From Octopus vulgaris (lineage: Eukaryota), in assembly GCA_951406725.2 (NCBI GenBank), contig OX597816.1:93806001-93870000 (forward strand): a stretch of 64,000 nucleotides of DNA, read 5' to 3'. Below, piece by piece: positions 14,465 to 63,699 of this stretch; within the stretch, counting starts at the first letter, position 1; the number at the start of each line of letters is the position of its first letter. The notes beneath the pieces were generated by a model, which was given only the letters and a program-made list of their open reading frames with translations, had not been told where the DNA came from and made no database searches. The position numbers and the translations under genes were made by a program.

Positions 14465-14501
<37 letters not shown>

Positions 14502-14506
<5 letters not shown>

Positions 14507-14899
14507 CAAAATGGGACAAGAACCCAAAACACCCGGGCAACTAGGTGATACAAAAAAGGACAACAAAACATCCAGATAGACGATACAAAAAAATAGAGGA
14601 CGGGTCATTCGAAGCCTTTTATCCTCAGTCAAGAACCGGATCATCCTCGCAATTTCGGCTGATTAGTCTTGAGATTGCTCTAATCTGGCCAGCCCCAAGG
14701 AAAAACTAAGCTAAGAGCATTAGATTCCTTGGGAAAAAGCATCGAATGTATACGAAAACAAGGACGGAAAAACAGACGATGTTACACGAATATATATACA
14801 AAAATACAATAAAAATAATAATTATAATAATAATAACAGGACATAACAACAGGCGTCTTTTGACTAGGGACGAATTGAATTCAGCTGGTGTGTGTGGAA

Positions 14900-24449: not shown

Positions 24450-24504
24450 ACATATATACTTATGAGACCAAAGTGTACATACGCCACTATATTTTTACAT
24501 ATAA

Positions 24505-24670
24505 AAAAAATACAGAAATGGGACAAGAACGCAAAACATCCAGACAGTTAGGTGATAAAAAAGGGACAACAAAATATCCAGAAAGACGATACAAAGAAAA
24601 CATGGACGGGTCATTCAGATTTTTTTACCCTCAGTCGAGTTCCAGATTATCTTTGCAATTTCGGCTGGTT
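24505..24670 (-). mobile_element. Family A element, 5'-truncated variant subfamily (copy 4)
   Basis: Minus strand: ccagccgaaattgc-aaa-ga-t-aatctgg-a-actcga-ctgaggg ... ttgcgttcttgtcccat. Confidence 0.8.
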
Positions 24671-24679
24671 ATAACTACA

Positions 24680-25020: not shown

Positions 25021-25389
25021 CCATTATTATTGTTCTTGTTCTTGTTCTTGTTCTTGTTCTTGTTTAGGCTGCCTTCCAGGCCAAATATTAATAATAACGT
25101 CACTATAGCGTGTTCGAGTAATGAATTAATGGCTGGATAAAGATCGTCTCCTGAAATAAAAAAAAATTGGTTTGTTGTATCATGAGTGAGAGATGTTATA
25201 AAGCAGTGCTTTTTTTATTTGTGGAATGCATTTAGAGCGATCAAGAAGAAAGAAACCATACCTCCATCTAGCACAAAACGAAATTCCCTTTCATATGACC
25301 CCAAAATAATGGTTAAAAGCCCTGGTTGATGATTGGAACAATGTGGCTTCTATCGTCTAGAGCAGGACATGTCTAAGTGTATATTTTGC

Positions 25390-25838
25390 TATTACTTTAC
25401 TGCCCACAAGGGGCTACACACAAAGGGGACAAACAAAGACAGACAAACGGATTAACTCGATTACATCGACCCAGTGCGTAACTGGTACTTATTTAATCGA
25501 CCCCGAAAGGATGAAAGGCAAAGTCGACCTAGGCGGAATTTGAACTCAGAACGTAGCGGCAGACGAAATACCGCTAAGCATTTCGCCCGGTGTGCTAACG
25601 TTTCTTATTTCTTTATTGCCCACAAGGAGCTAAACATAGAGGGGACAAACAAGGACAGACAAACGGATTAAGTCGATTACGTCGACCCCAGTGCGTAATT
25701 GGTACTTAATTTATCGACCCCGAAAGGATGAAAGGCAAAGTCGACCGCGGCGGAATTTGAACTCAGAAAGTAACGGCAGACGAAATACAACTAAGCATTT
25801 CGTCCGGTGCTCTAATGTTTCTGCCAGCTCGCCGCCTT
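25390..25838 (-). mobile_element. Head-to-tail dimer of the Meta-like-domain SINE
   Basis: Two ~220 bp near-identical units joined at about 25605. Head ggcggcgagctggcag at 25836. Confidence 0.92.
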
Positions 25839-25884
25839 CAGAAATGTATTTTGTCTTCAAGACCAAGCATAGAATGAAACAATA

Positions 25885-32324: not shown

Positions 32325-32722
32325 TCACAAGGCCAGCAATCTCGGGGGAGGGTGTAAATCGGTGTAATCGACACCAGTTTTCAATTTGTACACATTTTAT
32401 CAACCCCGAACGGATGTAAGGAAAAGTCAACCTCTGCGGAATTTGAACTTAGAACATAAAGACGGACGAAATACTAATAAGCATTTTACCTATTTCTTTA
32501 CTACCCACAAGGAGCCAAACACAGAGGAGACAAACAAGGACGGACAAACGGATTAAGTCGATTATACTGACCCCAGTGCGTAACTGGTACTTATTTAATC
32601 GACCCCGAAAAGATGAAAGGCAAAGTCGACCTCGGCGGAATTTGCACTCAGAACGTAATGGCAGACGAAATACTGCTAAGCATTCCGCCCAGCGTGCTAA
32701 CGATTCTGCCAGCTCACCGCCG
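32325..32722 (-). mobile_element. Two abutting SINE copies (Meta-like domain family)
   Basis: Same family as 25390-25838. Junction at about 32490. Confidence 0.9.
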
Positions 32723-39137: not shown

Positions 39138-39601
39138 CCATCGTCCATCTTTCTTTTCCTCGCGTGACCATCTTTCGTTTCCTGCACGGACGTTTAAAAG
39201 AACGGACGTGTTTTTCTCTTTCTTCTCTCTTTTCTCTTTAAAAGTAAATGTTCCCCCAGTGTTCACTATTTTCCTCTCGTCCTGGTCTAACGATCCTCCA
39301 TGTTTCTTTTCGTTCGGTTTCCTTGTATGTCTCCGTCATTTTTTTGTTCCTAGCTTTGACCCTCCATAAATCCTAAATTTTATTTTAGAATTTATGGGAG
39401 CAACTGTCTTTGAAGTCTCATATTGTTGTTAAATTCTCGAAATGAGGAGTAGATAGACAGCTGGCAGCTGATGAAGGGTTTTTTCTCTGTGTTTACTTGT
39501 CCTGTTTTCCAGTTTTCTCGTTGTTTACGTATTTCACTCGTTTTTCCCTCGTTTGTTTACGTATTTTATATTATTTGCACCGTTGGTGACGTTCTGTACC
39601 C

Positions 39602-44885: not shown

Positions 44886-44888
<3 letters not shown>

Positions 44889-45015
44889 AGATTAATCAGC
44901 TGAAATTGCGAGGATGATCCGGTTCTTGACTGAGGATTGAAGGCTTCGAATATCCCGTCCGTGTTTTTTGTATCGTCTTCTAAATGTTTTGCGTTCTTGT
45001 CCCAGTTTGTATTTT
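44886..45015 (+). mobile_element. Family A element, 5'-truncated (copy 2)
   Basis: (TA)n|tcaagattaatcagctgaaattgcgaggatgatccggttcttgactgagga...ttgcgttcttgtccca. Confidence 0.85.
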
Positions 45016-45024
45016 TACATATAC

Positions 45025-45091
<67 letters not shown>

Positions 45092-45647: not shown

Positions 45648-46215
45648 CTGTCCTTTTTCTCGCCCCTCCTTAATTCTTCTGTCCCTCTGCTTCTACTTCT
45701 CTCTCTTCTCTTCTCATATGACTGCCGGTCATCCTAGCTTCTTCTTTCTTGGTCTGACCGCCATCCATGCAACATCGATATTCTTCTCAGTGTCTGTGAA
45801 ATCTGTGTATCTCTGCCGTAAGGCTTCATTTCCACACGCGCCAGCTTAATTCAATTCGTCCTTAGTTGAAAGACACCTGTTGTTATGTCCTGTTATTATT
45901 TTTATTGTAGTTCTTATTGTATTTCTATTTGTGTAACTTTGTCCGTTTTTTCCGTCCTTGATTTTGCATACATTCACTGCTTTCTTCCAAGGAATCTAAT
46001 CTCTTACCTTAGTTTTCCCTTCGGGCTGGCCAGATTGGAGCAATCCCAAGAATAATCAGCCGAAATTGCGAGGATAATCTGGTGCTTGACTGAGGGTAGA
46101 GGGCTGCGAATGACCTGTCCTTGTTTTCTTTGTATCGTCTATCTGGATGTTTTGTTGTCCCTTTTTGTATCACCTAGCTGTTCTGATATTTTGCGTTCTT
46201 TTCCCATTTTGTATT
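45643..46215 (+). mobile_element. Family A element, longest copy (copy 3)
   Basis: Flanked by (TA)n and homologous to 14502-14900, with extra 5' pyrimidine-rich sequence. Confidence 0.85.
46011..46105 (+). ncRNA. Candidate permuted hammerhead ribozyme with kink-turn (family A)
   Basis: GGCUGG-CCAGAUU-G-GA-GCAAU-C-cCAAG..CAGCC-GAA-AUUGC-GAG-GA-U-AAUCUGG-ug-CUUGa-CUGAGGG. Confidence 0.55.
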
Positions 46216-46520
46216 ATTTATATATGTGTGTGTGTATGTGTGTGTGTGTGTGTGTTTGTATATATGTATGTATATATACATATAATTATTACGCAAAGTA
46301 ATTACTCAAATGTAGAAGTGTGCGTATTTTATAAAGGTTAAAATACCTGCTGCGTTTAGTATTAGTCAACTGTGGCTCAAATTTTATACGCTACCCCATC
46401 CAGAATTATTTGGCCTTCGTCTAATCGAACTGGGTGTGTATGAGTGAAGCGTGGAACTTTATATTGAGCCAAGATATTGGATTACATGTTGCTCCTTCCA
46501 TGTTGCACTTCTATACTATA

Positions 46521-47579: not shown

Positions 47580-49560
47580 CTTTAAAGTGGGTTGTGATTG
47601 GTTGAGAAAGGTCATGCGGTGTCGTGGTTTGATGTTGGTATATGAGTAAGAGTTAGTAGGAAAATACAGCATGGTGAACAGAAAATAGACCACGTGGCGA
47701 TTAGGAAATCGGTCAACTTGTTGGGGGAAGTAAGAAGGGGTGGAATGTGCAAGTATATAGTTCTATATGTGGATGTGGAAACGCCTTGATATGGTTTTGT
47801 GTGCATGTGCGTGTTGATGCAATCGTGCGCACTTGTACATGGGAGCGCACGCGCATGTCTGTACACACACAAACACACATACATACGCTTCACACACACA
47901 CACATACGCTTTACACACACACACACATACGTACGCTTAGACAAACATGCACGCGCGCACACGCACACATACACGCGCATACACACACATGCACACACAT
48001 ACTCGCATACACACACATGCGTATTCATTCATATGTACATATGTATATTTGCATGCATGTATGCATGCATACCAGGGTGCATTCGCGCGTGTGTGTGTGA
48101 GTATACAAACGCAATAAAGCGTTGGGGATTGGTAAGCGTTGGGAATAGGTATGCGTTGAGAATTAGTATGCTTTGGAGGGTTGGTAAAAGTTGGGGATTG
48201 GTAATTGGCGGTCCTGCTCATAGGGTTGGTTGGTAGCGGTGGCCTTGGTGCAGGCGGGGTAGAGCAGCAGCTGGTGCTAAGGTGGTATATCCGAATTGTC
48301 GGCAGTCAGAGGCTTGAAATTTTCCAGAACGGCATACCACTAGTGAGAGCAAAACGATAAATCTTTTTTCTTGTTGATGGATACAGCGGGTTTTTGGAGA
48401 TATGCAGTTTTTCGCGGAGGCAGAGCTGGCAGTTGGAGGTGCCGGATGAATATGATTGTGCTCTGTCGACAATAGTCCACTTGATCCTGGATATTTCACC
48501 TCGGAAATCACGGAGTCTCCAGACAAAGCGAAACAGAGAACTAGAATTCTTTCTGTCCTTGGATCTAAACGAGTGCATATACTGGGAGTATTTTTTCTTG
48601 AAGTTATTAGTTGTCATACCTGTATATTGCCTAGTAATGCCATCGGATGGTGAAAAGATGGCTCTGTATACTACGGCCCTTGATAGGCAAGATCCTTCTA
48701 GAGGGTACATGGTGGGGTTTCGGAAGTTGCAAGTTGGGATTGGGGGAAGTTTGGGTGCATTTGTACGTCTGTTGATGCGTGCGATATTAGATGCGATGTT
48801 GTCTACGCAAGAGTATCTTATCTTGACATTATGAGGGTTGAAGAGTTTGTGATACTGATGGCCTCTAGGGGAAGTGTTTCTTAATTAGCGACAGGAATCC
48901 CCTAGCAAAATTGATGGAAACTTCTGGGTTGAAATGGTGGGGTATACCATATAATTTTCCTTCTTCTGTCTCTTTGGGGTGAGGAGAGGGTGTTTGAGGT
49001 TTGTCCACATACGTGAGCTTCCCAGTAGACCCGCTCCTAGCCAAAGCAACGTTGTAGTGGGGGGCAACCCTGCTAAAGTTCTCTCTTTTGGCCGAGAGAT
49101 TAGATAGTCGTTTACTAATGCCGGGAGCCAGGCTTTTAATTACAGCGTGGGGTGGATTGAGCCCTTGTGGATGTATAGTGTATCCTTGTTAGGTTTCCTG
49201 TACGGATAATACTTGCCTGTACTAAGGTCTAAGGTTACGTCCAAGAAATTGAACATAGTCAGGTTGGTGGTAACCGTTATGGACAGGCCGAACTCCTTAA
49301 ATATTTTTATCAAATTCTTCCTGAACTTGTCCATGGTGTGGGCGTTCATATAGCTTGAGAGAACCAGGCCGTCGTCCCTATAGAGGTAGGTACGTCTCTT
49401 CAGGATATCTAAGATGTATAACCAGACAAGATAGGCGATTTCAGTGCCGTCAAAGCTCCCTACAGAGACGTCGAACAATGGGTCACCTTCTTTTTTCACC
49501 CAGAAGGAATCGTTATGGGCCAGAATTGACTTGGGGTCGATTTGTTCGACTAATATCCCT
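47580..49560 (-). mobile_element. Penelope-like element (RT C-terminus + GIY-YIG endonuclease + 3' region), decayed
   Basis: FDVSVGSFDG, LYRDDGL, NFLDVTLDL..YYPYRKPN. GIY-YIG region PLEGSCL..VVYRA..YTGMT..FK..CQLCLREK. Confidence 0.92.
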
Positions 49561-50068: not shown

Positions 50069-50189
50069 TTCATTAATGAGAATCAAATATTCTCCGTATA
50101 GAATGCACTTCTTAGTTCCCAAGACATTTAAACTTGTGCGGGTATAGAAGTAAATGTTGGGATAAGCAAGTTAGAAAATGAATATATCT

Positions 50190-50400
50190 TCTTTTCTACT
50201 CTAGGCACAAAGCCCGAAATTTTGGGGAAGGGGCTAGTCGATTAGATCGCCCCAGTACGCAACTGGTACTTAATTTATCGATCTCGAAAGGATGAAAGGC
50301 AAAGTCGACCTCAGCGAAATTTGAACTCAGAAAGTAAAGATAGACGAAATACCGCTAAGCATTTCGCGCGGCATGCTAACATTTCTACCATCTCGCTGCC
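50190..50400 (-). mobile_element. SINE (Meta-like domain family)
   Basis: gaaaggatgaaaggcaaagtcgacctc...tttgaactcagaa...gacgaaataccgctaagcatttcg. Confidence 0.9.
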
Positions 50401-50868
50401 TTACATAATTTATATATTGATCTGTCTAACCTGCTTATTCCTTCATTTACTTCTACAAATATATATACATACATATGTATACATACATATTTACATACAT
50501 ATGTATACATACACACTCGCGTGCGTGCACACACACTAACACAATGAGCGTTCACATACGACATTCCCTCACAAGGCATTCGTGGGCCTGGGGCTACTGC
50601 AGAAGACACTAGTCCGGAGTGCTGTGCAGAGGGGCTGAACCCCGAAATCACGTGGAGCTTAACTACGGCACTTTACCATATATGTGTGCGTTCATACATG
50701 CATTTATGTATATACGCGTGCATGTTTGTATGCATGTATGTGTGTGTGATTATTATTAATAATTTTAACGCATGCGTGCACACACATATACATACACACA
50801 TAAAAACATGGCTATAGATTCTGAGTATTCTAACAGATCATAATGTGATCCTTATATTGTCCTTTGTA

Positions 50869-53083: not shown

Positions 53084-53245
53084 GACATACATATATACGA
53101 CGGGATTCTTTCAGTTTCCGTCTACCAAATCCACTCACAATGCTTTGGTCGGCCCGAGGCTATAGTAGAAGACACCTGCCCAAGGTGCCACGCAGTGGGA
53201 CTGAACCCAGAATCATGTGGTTCGTGAGCAAGCTATTTACCACAT
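52800..53245 (-). mobile_element. OR-like CORE SINE with an internal microsatellite
   Basis: Head matches 22610-22712 and tail matches 9660-9880. Confidence 0.85.
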
Positions 53246-53254
53246 ATATTTATT

Positions 53255-53825
53255 TCAAGTTTTGGCACAATGCCAGCAATTTCTGGGCAGGGGTAAGTCG
53301 ATTACATCGACTCCAGTACTCAAGTCGTATTTATTTTATTGTACCGAAATTATGAAATGCAAAGTCGACCTCGGTGGAATTCGATCTCAGAACGTAAAGT
53401 CGGACGAAGTGCCGCTAAGCATTTTGTCCGATGTGCTAATGATTCTGCGACATCACTATTTTCATTATAAGTTTACATATATTAATGGTAGTTCCTCAAA
53501 TCCGAGCAAAGGCGGCTCTACAATTTCCTGGTGAATAACCTGCACATTTGGTTTGTTTATAACGATCAAATTTTCTCCATCAATTCCACGCTATACCACA
53601 CATTAGATGTTGAAGTGATCGCAGACCCCGAAAGGATGAAAGGCAAAGTCGACCTCGGCGGACTTTGAACTCAGAACGTAACGGCAGACGAAATACCGCT
53701 AAGCATTTCGCCCGGGGTGCAAACGGTTCTGCCAGCTCGTCGCCTTTAATGTAAATAAGTAATGCTTTTTACTGGAAGCACAATGTCTCAAATTTGGGGA
53801 AAGGGATTAAATCGATTACATCGAT
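53255..53825 (-). mobile_element. Cluster of three SINE pieces (Meta-like domain family)
   Basis: Copies at about 53255-53450, 53622-53745 and 53770-53825. Confidence 0.85.
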
Positions 53826-61547: not shown

Positions 61548-62924
61548 GTTCTACAATAGGCACAAGGCCTGAAATTTCTTGATTAAGAATAGTAAATTTC
61601 TGTGAAAATTTTTTTGTTAGAAATAATAGATTTGTACTCTACAAAAGTATAGAGTGACTCAGTAGATTAATGCAGAATTGTTTTTATTATAAATGAACCT
61701 TAAGGTAGCGAGCTGCCAGAGTATTAACTATACTAAACAGTAAAGCCAGTCGTCACATCAAAATGGCTGTTGAATGTTACTACTAGTTTAACCCCAGGCA
61801 GATTCTCCACCAGCTGGTTAGCAGTGCGAATACATATATGTATTCACACACATACACACACACATACACACACATAAATATACACACACACTCACACACA
61901 CACACGCATACACATATACACGCACACAAAGAAAACAAGAAAACATACAGATACATAGACATACATTTAAGAGATTAGCTTTTTGTTACCTGTTCTAAAG
62001 AAAAAAAACGTTTTAAAATAAAACTTTGAATAGTAACAAGGTAAATCAATTTCTAAGGAACTAATAAATAAACTTCACTGTACGTATTGAGTTTTATTTC
62101 TACAATTTTTACAACCAAACATATATTAGCTTATATTTTCTTTACATAAACTTTCAAAATTTTGTGGCTATATATTAGATACTGTTTCTTCTCGTTTAGA
62201 TGAAGTTGGGTGGAGAATAATCAACACAAAAGTACGCAAATAAGCAATAAAAAAATTGGTTAAGTCTCTCCTTGCCTTGATTGACTGTGTATTTGTAGAA
62301 GAGACCAGTTGGTTGACTAGTCTTTGTTTATCGAGCGTCTGTCTATTATTATTGGGCCTCCTTGTCTGCCCTGTTGTCATCATTGTTTGTATTTTCAATA
62401 GTGTTGGGCTGGTCTAAGGCGACTGTGGCTCCATGAATATTTCAGATTTTTCATGCTTTAGTCAAGCTGTCGCTAGCATTTTGCCCATTATTTCACACTG
62501 CAACACTTCACAGATACTTGTTGAATTTCTTTTATATTTTAGAAACAAAAAATGCATTTTCGTCTTTTAACATCAATTTACCCTGACAAATTGTACCATA
62601 GAGAAGAAGAAAGTTTTTTCTTTTTTCCTTTCCAGCTAACTCGGCAAGAATGTCTAGCCAACACTTTAACTGTAAAGCAAAGTAATAGGAGCACCGTCTT
62701 TGTTTATATTCAACTCTTCAAATATGTGTGTGTATGTGTGCGTGTGTACATACATACATACATACATACATACATACATACATACATACATACATACATA
62801 CATACATACATACATACATACATACATACATACCACATGCTTATTCCCAATTGATCTCTAAAAGTAGTTAACTTTTATTGAACAGAAGGAGTAAAATCTC
62901 TCAAATAACCCTCAATACCTTATT

Positions 62925-63060
62925 GGTTTCAAGTTTTGGCACAAAGCCAGCAATTTCAGGAAAGCGGATAAGTCGATTACATCAACCTCAGTATTCAACT
63001 GGTACTTATTTTATCGATCCCGAAAGGATGAAAGGCAAAGTCGATTTTGGTGCAATTTGA
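62925..63060 (-). mobile_element. SINE fragment (Meta-like domain family)
   Basis: actggtacttattttatcgatcccgaaaggatgaaaggcaaagtcga. Confidence 0.85.
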
Positions 63061-63699
63061 AACTGACTATATAATATTCTATCCAGTATTATTTCTAATT
63101 TTTTGTATCCTCAATTATTTTCTAACTACCATGCTGAAAATATTTTTTACTTCGACAATTTCAACAATATTGATTTCAGCATAGTTTAGCAGCAAGGTAA
63201 AAAGGTGTAAGAATTACATAGGTTGGATGTCAATTCCGGACTGAAGCGATATAGTTTCACCAAATTTTTATTTATTTTTTTTTTATCTTTTGATTAATGC
63301 ATGAAAACTTTGCCGGTCATTTATCTGAATGAAGAATAGAATGTTTACAGAGAATACTATTTGTTAATGATAAAGGGCAGAAAGATGACCGAAATCTTGA
63401 TAGACAAATACTCTTTTACGACATCATATTAATTCGTGGTTTAAGTCTTTCCATTGAAACTACGATTCAGAAACTGAGAAGCTAACATATAGTTTAGGTT
63501 TTGTCAGGTGTTCGTAAGATATTTTTCTGGATCCAAGATAATTTTTCTCCTATCAGTCACAGAAAATTGTAACGCAATTTTTTGTCACCAATATCGTACA
63601 GTTAAGTTGCCAATGTTTTTTTTTTTGCAAGCCTTTTTTAAAATAACGATAATAATAAACTACCTATGTCACTTCACATCCCACTAGGTAGCGATAGCA

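Follow-up and report, generated by a model that had tools for sequence, protein, structure and literature searches.

Does an octopus retroelement carry a hammerhead ribozyme whose catalytic core is split between two distant strands? The question is raised by a locus on the minus strand of a 64,000-nt stretch of Octopus vulgaris DNA, referred to here as the window. A first-pass annotation of the letters had placed the conserved hammerhead parts in the order UH, GAAA, core, which lies outside types I, II and III (the cyclic arrangements of core, GAAA and UH), and knew of no description of the topology. The order cleavage site, GAAA, CUGANGA is, however, already known: Eckert et al. 2023 (PMC10085705) described it as type SGC and validated it by experiment. 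In the available text of that paper the SGC and CSG orders, both validated, come with an extra helix between stems I and II, and the sequences derive from metatranscriptomes and metagenomes. The same text deems block C uninterruptible and counts six permutations as possible. The reading of the order therefore holds and its novelty does not, whereas the split core and the retroelement setting are what we did not find in print.

Results

Layout of the window copy

All hammerhead elements named earlier lie on the minus strand and in register when checked against the sequence. Hammerhead position numbering is used throughout. The element that holds them, family A, is laid out as follows, with the evidence given last.

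14502..14890, minus: family A retroelement copy, non-autonomous, 5'-truncated, about 390 nt; its fixed 3' end runs into (TA)n
14734..14748, minus: P0 5' strand, outer helix, 3' end abutting P1; in the minimum-free-energy fold
14695..14732, minus: P1 hairpin, last base pair directly before G10.1; folding and recurrence
14690..14694, minus: stem II 5' strand, displaced to the 5' end of the ribozyme (G10.1 = 14694); pairing counts, covariation
14679..14689, minus: P4 5' strand and non-bulged strand of the kink-turn (k-turn), G and A at 14680 and 14679; covariation, folding
14673..14678, minus: stem III 3' strand (14678-14674), U16.1 = 14674, C17 = 14673; pairing counts, covariation
between 14673 and 14672, minus: predicted cut; pile-up of copy 5' ends
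14667..14672, minus: stem I 3' strand; covariation, with two compensatory changes in a subfamily
14657..14666, minus: 5-nt linker and stem II 3' strand (14661-14657; C11.1 = 14657); covariation
14649..14656, minus: G12, A13, A14 and A15.1 (GAAA, 14656-14653) and stem III 5' strand; pairing counts, covariation
14635..14648, minus: 3-nt bulge of the k-turn (14648-14646), tandem GA (14645-14644, facing 14680-14679) and P4 3' strand; folding, counts of k-turn positions
14629..14634, minus: stem I 5' strand; covariation
14622..14628, minus: catalytic strand C3 to A9, CUGANGA, with stem II not next; core-position counts
14606..14621, minus: P0 3' strand, 0-2 nt from A9; folding

Read 5' to 3', the proposed ribozyme would begin with P0a, P1, the stem II 5' strand, P4a, the stem III 3' strand, UH, the stem I 3' strand and the linker, and would continue with the stem II 3' strand, GAAA, the stem III 5' strand, the bend, P4b, the stem I 5' strand, CUGANGA and P0b. 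It would thus be a hammerhead with a non-circular SGC connectivity, opened inside the catalytic block. Covariation supports stems I, II, III and P4, and folding together with recurrence supports P0 and P1. Rfam returned no hammerhead for 14480-14880, where five sub-threshold matches were irrelevant, and for the whole window only microsatellite-driven miRNA matches among 150 of 318 listed.

As far as the available text describes the SGC ribozyme HRIMA-1, family A resembles it in the S, G, C order, the short linker between stems I and II and the double-pseudoknot core. The extra helix of SGC, to which P4 is the family A equivalent, joins the other sides of stems I and II. Block C is whole in SGC but split in family A, where stem II does not come after CUGANGA, and the ends that are open in SGC are here closed through the k-turn, the opening lying instead at A9/G10.1 and bridged by P0/P1. 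SGC is reported there only from metatranscriptomes, whereas the split form is genomic and sits in retroelements. CSG, with two sequences known in the same text, has the same cyclic connectivity but an intact core and no P0/P1 nick. The predicted family A form is the SGC/CSG cyclic arrangement opened at a seventh place, and it conforms neither to types I, II and III nor to SGC as defined. Because the descriptors given in PMC10085705 demand stem II right after the core, they could not find the split form.

Neither a split core, nor a k-turn within such a ribozyme, nor any ribozyme of Naiad is described in the open literature and preprint main texts searched. The available parts of PMC3088659, PMC10162972 and PMC13725137 describe no such ribozyme, and those of Forgia 2023 and Perreault 2011 hold no split-core or extra-helix hammerhead. 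A natural hammerhead that lacks the A9-G10.1 bond is without precedent in the literature examined.

Recurrence and covariation across families

A sequence-free pattern (GAAA block, 3-nt bulge, GA, CUGANGA) that excluded family A at position 15.2 gave 3,720 genome matches, compared with 328 for the control. Family A itself has the triplet AUC (U15.2-A16.2), and nearly all other families here have C15.2-G16.2. We fetched 90 loci, most of the 100 matches listed, which held 92 distinct matches with truncated and chance ones included. At least 9 of 10 pairs in stems I and III were formed in 52 of these 92, against 33 of 2,344 cross-family chimeras. Within the 52, for which GAAA was demanded by the search pattern, UH stands at 16.1/17 in 48, A15.1-U16.1 is paired in 50 and G10.1-C11.1 is G-C in 48, while at most other stem positions several Watson-Crick pair types occur. 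The distance from H17 to G12 is 13-16 nt in 50 of the 52, corresponding to a short linker between stems I and II.

The position of stem II decides whether this could be an ordinary SGC ribozyme, with the stem II 5' strand placed after A9 beyond an insertion of 5-7 nt. Family A does offer a 4-bp downstream partner, seen in the window copy as a 4-nt partial complement of stem II downstream of A9, but this partner is missing both from other families and from the subfamily in which stem I has changed. An upstream partner with at least 4 of 5 Watson-Crick pairs is present in 46 of the 52 matches (chimeras, 349 of 1,966), against 7 with such a partner within 18 nt downstream of A9 and 2 in which the stem II 5' strand follows A9 within 1-2 nt, the arrangement that defines the class. 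The downstream stretch is moreover occupied by P0. We regard the ordinary arrangement as very unlikely, and the upstream partner bears out the earlier proposal of a chain opening between A9 and G10.1. The subfamily concerned, of at least 961 copies, carries two compensatory changes in stem I and one additional stem II pair, and has lost the partial stem II complement after A9.

Covariation was assessed in an alignment of 24 hand-picked representatives of A-like families that omits L066, which has an internal deletion, and L121, a near duplicate. Of all cells, 84.4% are paired, compared with at most 45% in slid controls; 16 of 24 pairs show two-sided changes, and A15.1-U16.1 is A-U in 24 of 24. 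Because relatedness inflates the shuffle control, we give more weight to the slide control and to the chimeras. The weakest helix is P4, with 71% of cells paired, a value that is partly due to four rows standing one column out of register. Covariation among genomic copies, one of the checks suggested for this locus, came out in favor of the fold: stems I, II, III and P4 all show compensatory changes, and three helices stand in register around the core with covariation. P0 has a compensatory change from A-U to U-A in one subfamily.

Short helices can also fit by chance in a repeat, and a loose descriptor finds two weak window matches with 12 of 15 pairs. Such a fit is refuted by the chimera, shuffle, slide and reversed-pattern controls and is contradicted by recurrence in other phyla in the accessible parts of the Naiad records described below, which makes it practically negligible. 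Many families of unrelated sequence share the fold in this genome, and one of them has a copy in the window:

39359..39479, plus: decayed copy of a different family, split-core layout with the P0/P1 nick, no canonical k-turn

In this copy the bend between stem III and P4 is an AGUA/GAA internal loop, which we take to be loop E-like and which has relatives in L162, L187 and L240.

Core and k-turn conservation

With the seven core positions left free, CUGANGA is present in 97 of the 100 family A matches listed; A, U, G and C all occur at position 7, and G9 occurs in none of the 100. That A9 is G in two window copies had been raised as a caveat, and it mostly falls away. The sister copies L066 and L196 of the second window copy have A9, and since no listed copy has G9 either, the two window copies most likely represent private decay, judging from these sequences.

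The rules for k-turns ask for a canonical stem, a 3-nt bulge, tandem G.A/A.G and a second stem, and the family A motif has these at the sequence level. When the k-turn was left free in the search, GA was kept in 97 of the 100 listed copies while about ten forms of the bulge occurred, in agreement with the earlier observation that the bulge changes and GA does not. Across families, the canonical n-strand GA is found in 30 of the 52 matches, in which 3b.3n is mostly non-Watson-Crick (U.U in 12 and C.C in 4 of the 30), and Naiad examples inspected by eye, the coral ones included, lack the k-turn. The proposed k-turn is thus canonical in sequence but lineage-specific, one way among several of making the bend from stem III into P4, which other lineages form by other means. 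We found no description in the open literature of a hammerhead, a k-turn and a retroelement together.

The A9/G10.1 opening

The first-pass annotation had the opening closed by an outer helix, which was misassigned: in place of a pairing with (U/C)CCUU, folding gives a longer helix, P0, together with an upstream hairpin, P1. P0 begins right after A9, its 5' strand ends where P1 begins, and P1 ends before G10.1. We searched for this junction by folding the flanks alone with the core blocked, and called it tight if all three joints were at most 2 nt. Tight junctions were found in 19 of 35 other-family matches (11 of them gapless) and in 55 of 80 family A copies, compared with 11 of 350 shuffles and 34 of 223 chimeras. 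P0 and P1 also form in the unconstrained fold of the window copy. As first proposed, the k-turn leads on into a further helix, P4, which covariation and folding support and which would link the far ends of stems I and II.

In a nested fold the core of the window copy adopts other hairpins at -16.2 kcal/mol, compared with -7.6 kcal/mol for stem III plus P4, a value that leaves out two pseudoknot stems of about -5 and -8. Stem III plus P4 is the minimum-energy fold in 2 of 5 subfamily examples. Two uncommon changes in the window copy strengthen the competing hairpin, so this particular copy may be a poor ribozyme.

Strand-swapped dimers are known for minimal PLE (Penelope-like element) hammerheads, and the same helices might here form between two molecules or tandem units. 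The units do stand in tandem, and a single chain needs three mutually crossing helix sets that compete with local hairpins. P4, P0 and P1 are nevertheless all present in cis with lengths that suit a single chain, and swapping strands leaves the A9-G10.1 break as it is. We consider the dimer quite unlikely and keep to a fold within one chain.

Copies and genomic setting

The host genome has 2.8 Gb and is rich in microsatellites. A 34-nt family A pattern has 5,534 exact matches genome-wide and its reversed control none, a pattern placed at the element's 3' end has 7,059, and the family is present in four further contig sets. The window holds four copies, the one described above and the following three.

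45841..46225, plus: second copy of family A, with 84% identity and G9 in its core
24488..24671, minus: third copy, decayed, of the subfamily with changed stem I
44886..45058, plus: fourth copy, preceded by (TA)n and starting at the predicted cut

At the 3' side the copies end at one fixed point and run into (TA)n, and at the 5' side they are truncated to different extents. Some form partial tandems of a non-coding monomer, and others carry inverted 5' pieces. Tandem units are spaced 755-872 nt apart (monomer about 800 nt), and each is non-coding with one hammerhead, which is the layout of a non-LTR retrozyme. Animal non-LTR retrozymes are described, in the available text of 10.64898/2026.07.22.740005, as PLE-derived non-coding tandem units with one type I hammerhead each. 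Family A shares this tandem layout but is not type I and would be missed by type I descriptors.

Several other repeats were seen alongside. One ordinary retrozyme-like tandem family (about 353-360 nt) has a hammerhead core in the canonical order and occurs at G000:C1:21143781 and in many other places. Two family A copies (L098 and L099, G000:C1:29.83 Mb) are oppositely oriented, 5.7 kb from each other, and share one 5' junction, a layout that suggests a larger inverted duplication. An abundant short SINE-like repeat of about 217 nt, partly in tandem, occupies 25389-25840, 32367-32721, 50184-50416, 53244-53757 and 62921-63061. Long inverted-repeat pairs, about 0.4-0.8 kb apart, lie at 12921-13161/13920-14161 (98%) and 7205-7620/7993-8393 (83%).

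A footprint at the predicted cut

We mapped the 5' ends of the first 100 listed of the 7,059 3'-end matches by anchored alignment, using a pattern that ignores the ribozyme. The 21 nt that begin exactly at the predicted cut hold 24 of these 100 ends, compared with 1 in the 20 nt upstream and 6 in the 20 nt further downstream; a few of the mapped ends are inversions or internal deletions. The end hazard is 0.018 per nt in this interval and 0.001-0.004 elsewhere (binomial p of about 1e-6 on each side). The start of the interval was predicted and its width was picked after seeing the data, and among 21-nt intervals offset by -15 to +15 the highest count falls in the one that begins at the cut. 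The pile-up fits reverse transcription that starts internally and runs off a cleaved 5' end.

According to the available text of PMC11167929, reverse transcription of an Anolis PLE starts internally, and in vitro its hammerhead cleavage is dispensable for insertion, with no reads ending at the site. Stalling of the reverse transcriptase (RT) at a structure could also produce a pile-up, and the motif might then be a hammerhead-derived but non-catalytic fold that acts as a binding site for the Naiad RT/endonuclease or as a pause signal. The dispensable cleavage in Anolis is in line with this, and the A9-G10.1 break might cripple the core. Such a role does not sit well with the retention of every catalytic position while position 7 and the stems vary freely, with the avoidance of G at position 17 (UH in 48 of 52) or with a pile-up that both starts and stops at the cut. 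We judge a non-catalytic fold unlikely and favor cleavage.

Link to Naiad elements

Naiad PLEs are reported to lack canonical hammerheads by Craig et al. 2021 (PMC8557442), where, in the available parts, some annotations read 'HHR_core' or 'half_core' and fit no descriptor. The 3' ends printed there for Naiad_Obim and Naiad_Ovul are matched in this genome. Read by eye, ten Naiad consensus records in the accessible portion of the supplement have the split-core layout with unrelated stem sequences, among them Naiad_Obim, Naiad_Ovul, three from Acropora and a weak one from a ctenophore, with a stem I of only 2 bp; the remaining four stand in or beside the cnidarian and ostracod parts. In six of the ten, P0 starts at A9 and P1 ends at G10.1. 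The nematode part contains eight records that, again by eye, show intact-core CSG hammerheads with a long interaction helix. Of the 50-odd Naiad records in the supplement, those read in the bivalve, spider and fish passages showed no split-core layout. Judged from these records, the split form would occur in ctenophore, cnidarian, mollusc and arthropod elements and the intact CSG form in nematodes. Some further records in the same portion have a C-run before CUGANGA and no parsable layout, and are possibly further ribozyme variants.

In the octopus genome, an RT C-terminal fragment 860 nt before one split-core ribozyme has 145 matches. A Naiad_Ovul-type ribozyme follows about 0.5-1.4 kb downstream on the same strand in 19 of 50 RT loci by eye and in 16 of 50 by descriptor, while the family A ribozyme sequence is absent behind the RT in the 50 examined of the 145. 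No informative ORF stands beside the family A copies among the matches listed, and three family A motifs are absent from the accessible supplement of PMC8557442, in which line breaks can hide matches. L271, in which an RT fragment lies 2.4 kb after an A-type ribozyme, was considered as an autonomous partner and rejected as separate insertions. Pfam gave no name for the RT fragments, and the RT peptide motif was not matched in the available supplement, whose protein lines are incomplete; it is therefore the match at DNA level to the printed 3' ends that supports the Naiad label.

Family A probably has Naiad as its partner, a link drawn from the shared fold and insertion style. Common to both, in the available text of PMC8557442, are (TA)n targets, partial tandems and inverted 5'-truncated pieces. 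Naiad elements have an ORF with N-terminal GIY-YIG and C-terminal RT, whereas complete family A monomers have none, and family A would therefore be at most a non-autonomous Naiad derivative. Elsewhere in the window, 48309-49559 (minus strand) holds broken ORF fragments that resemble a Penelope-like RT with C-terminal GIY-YIG; Pfam gives no match, and from their motifs they are presumably Neptune-like.

Discussion

We are close to certain that the window element carries a real, selected RNA fold. That parent elements contain an active split-core hammerhead is, on the model presented here, a well-supported expectation. The broadest claim, which we hold to be likely if somewhat less so, is that this hammerhead would be active in vivo, would lie beyond the six permutations with a nicked-helix splint at A9/G10.1, and would represent a clade-wide Naiad ribozyme with split and nematode CSG forms.

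In the proposed mechanism, P4 would run back from the end of stem III and tie stems I and II together at their distal ends, taking over from the loop-loop contact. P0 and P1 would stack as one helix, the nick of which holds A9 beside G10.1 in place of the missing phosphodiester, and cleavage would follow H17 by ordinary hammerhead chemistry. The carriers would be non-autonomous, retrozyme-like derivatives of Naiad PLEs, in which the ribozyme cuts tandem transcripts into unit-length RNA. Reverse transcription would start internally, about 105-150 nt downstream; it may run off the cut end and give short copies, or continue on an uncut or circular template and give partial tandems.

The layout provides a new descriptor for thousands of candidate ribozymes that have been missed. 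A9/G10.1 may serve as a new insertion point for engineering switchable hammerheads, and the predicted k-turn would be a natural one in a ribozyme scaffold, through which L7Ae-family proteins could regulate it. If the proposal is true, the copy ends are a genomic footprint of PLE RNA that was cut in vivo and then used as template, and the published view that the CUGANGA-stem II block cannot be interrupted would be overturned. Non-circularly permuted hammerheads would then be common in invertebrate genomes, not metatranscriptome rarities, and Naiads, which dominate many of these genomes, would not proliferate without hammerheads, as the published view has it.
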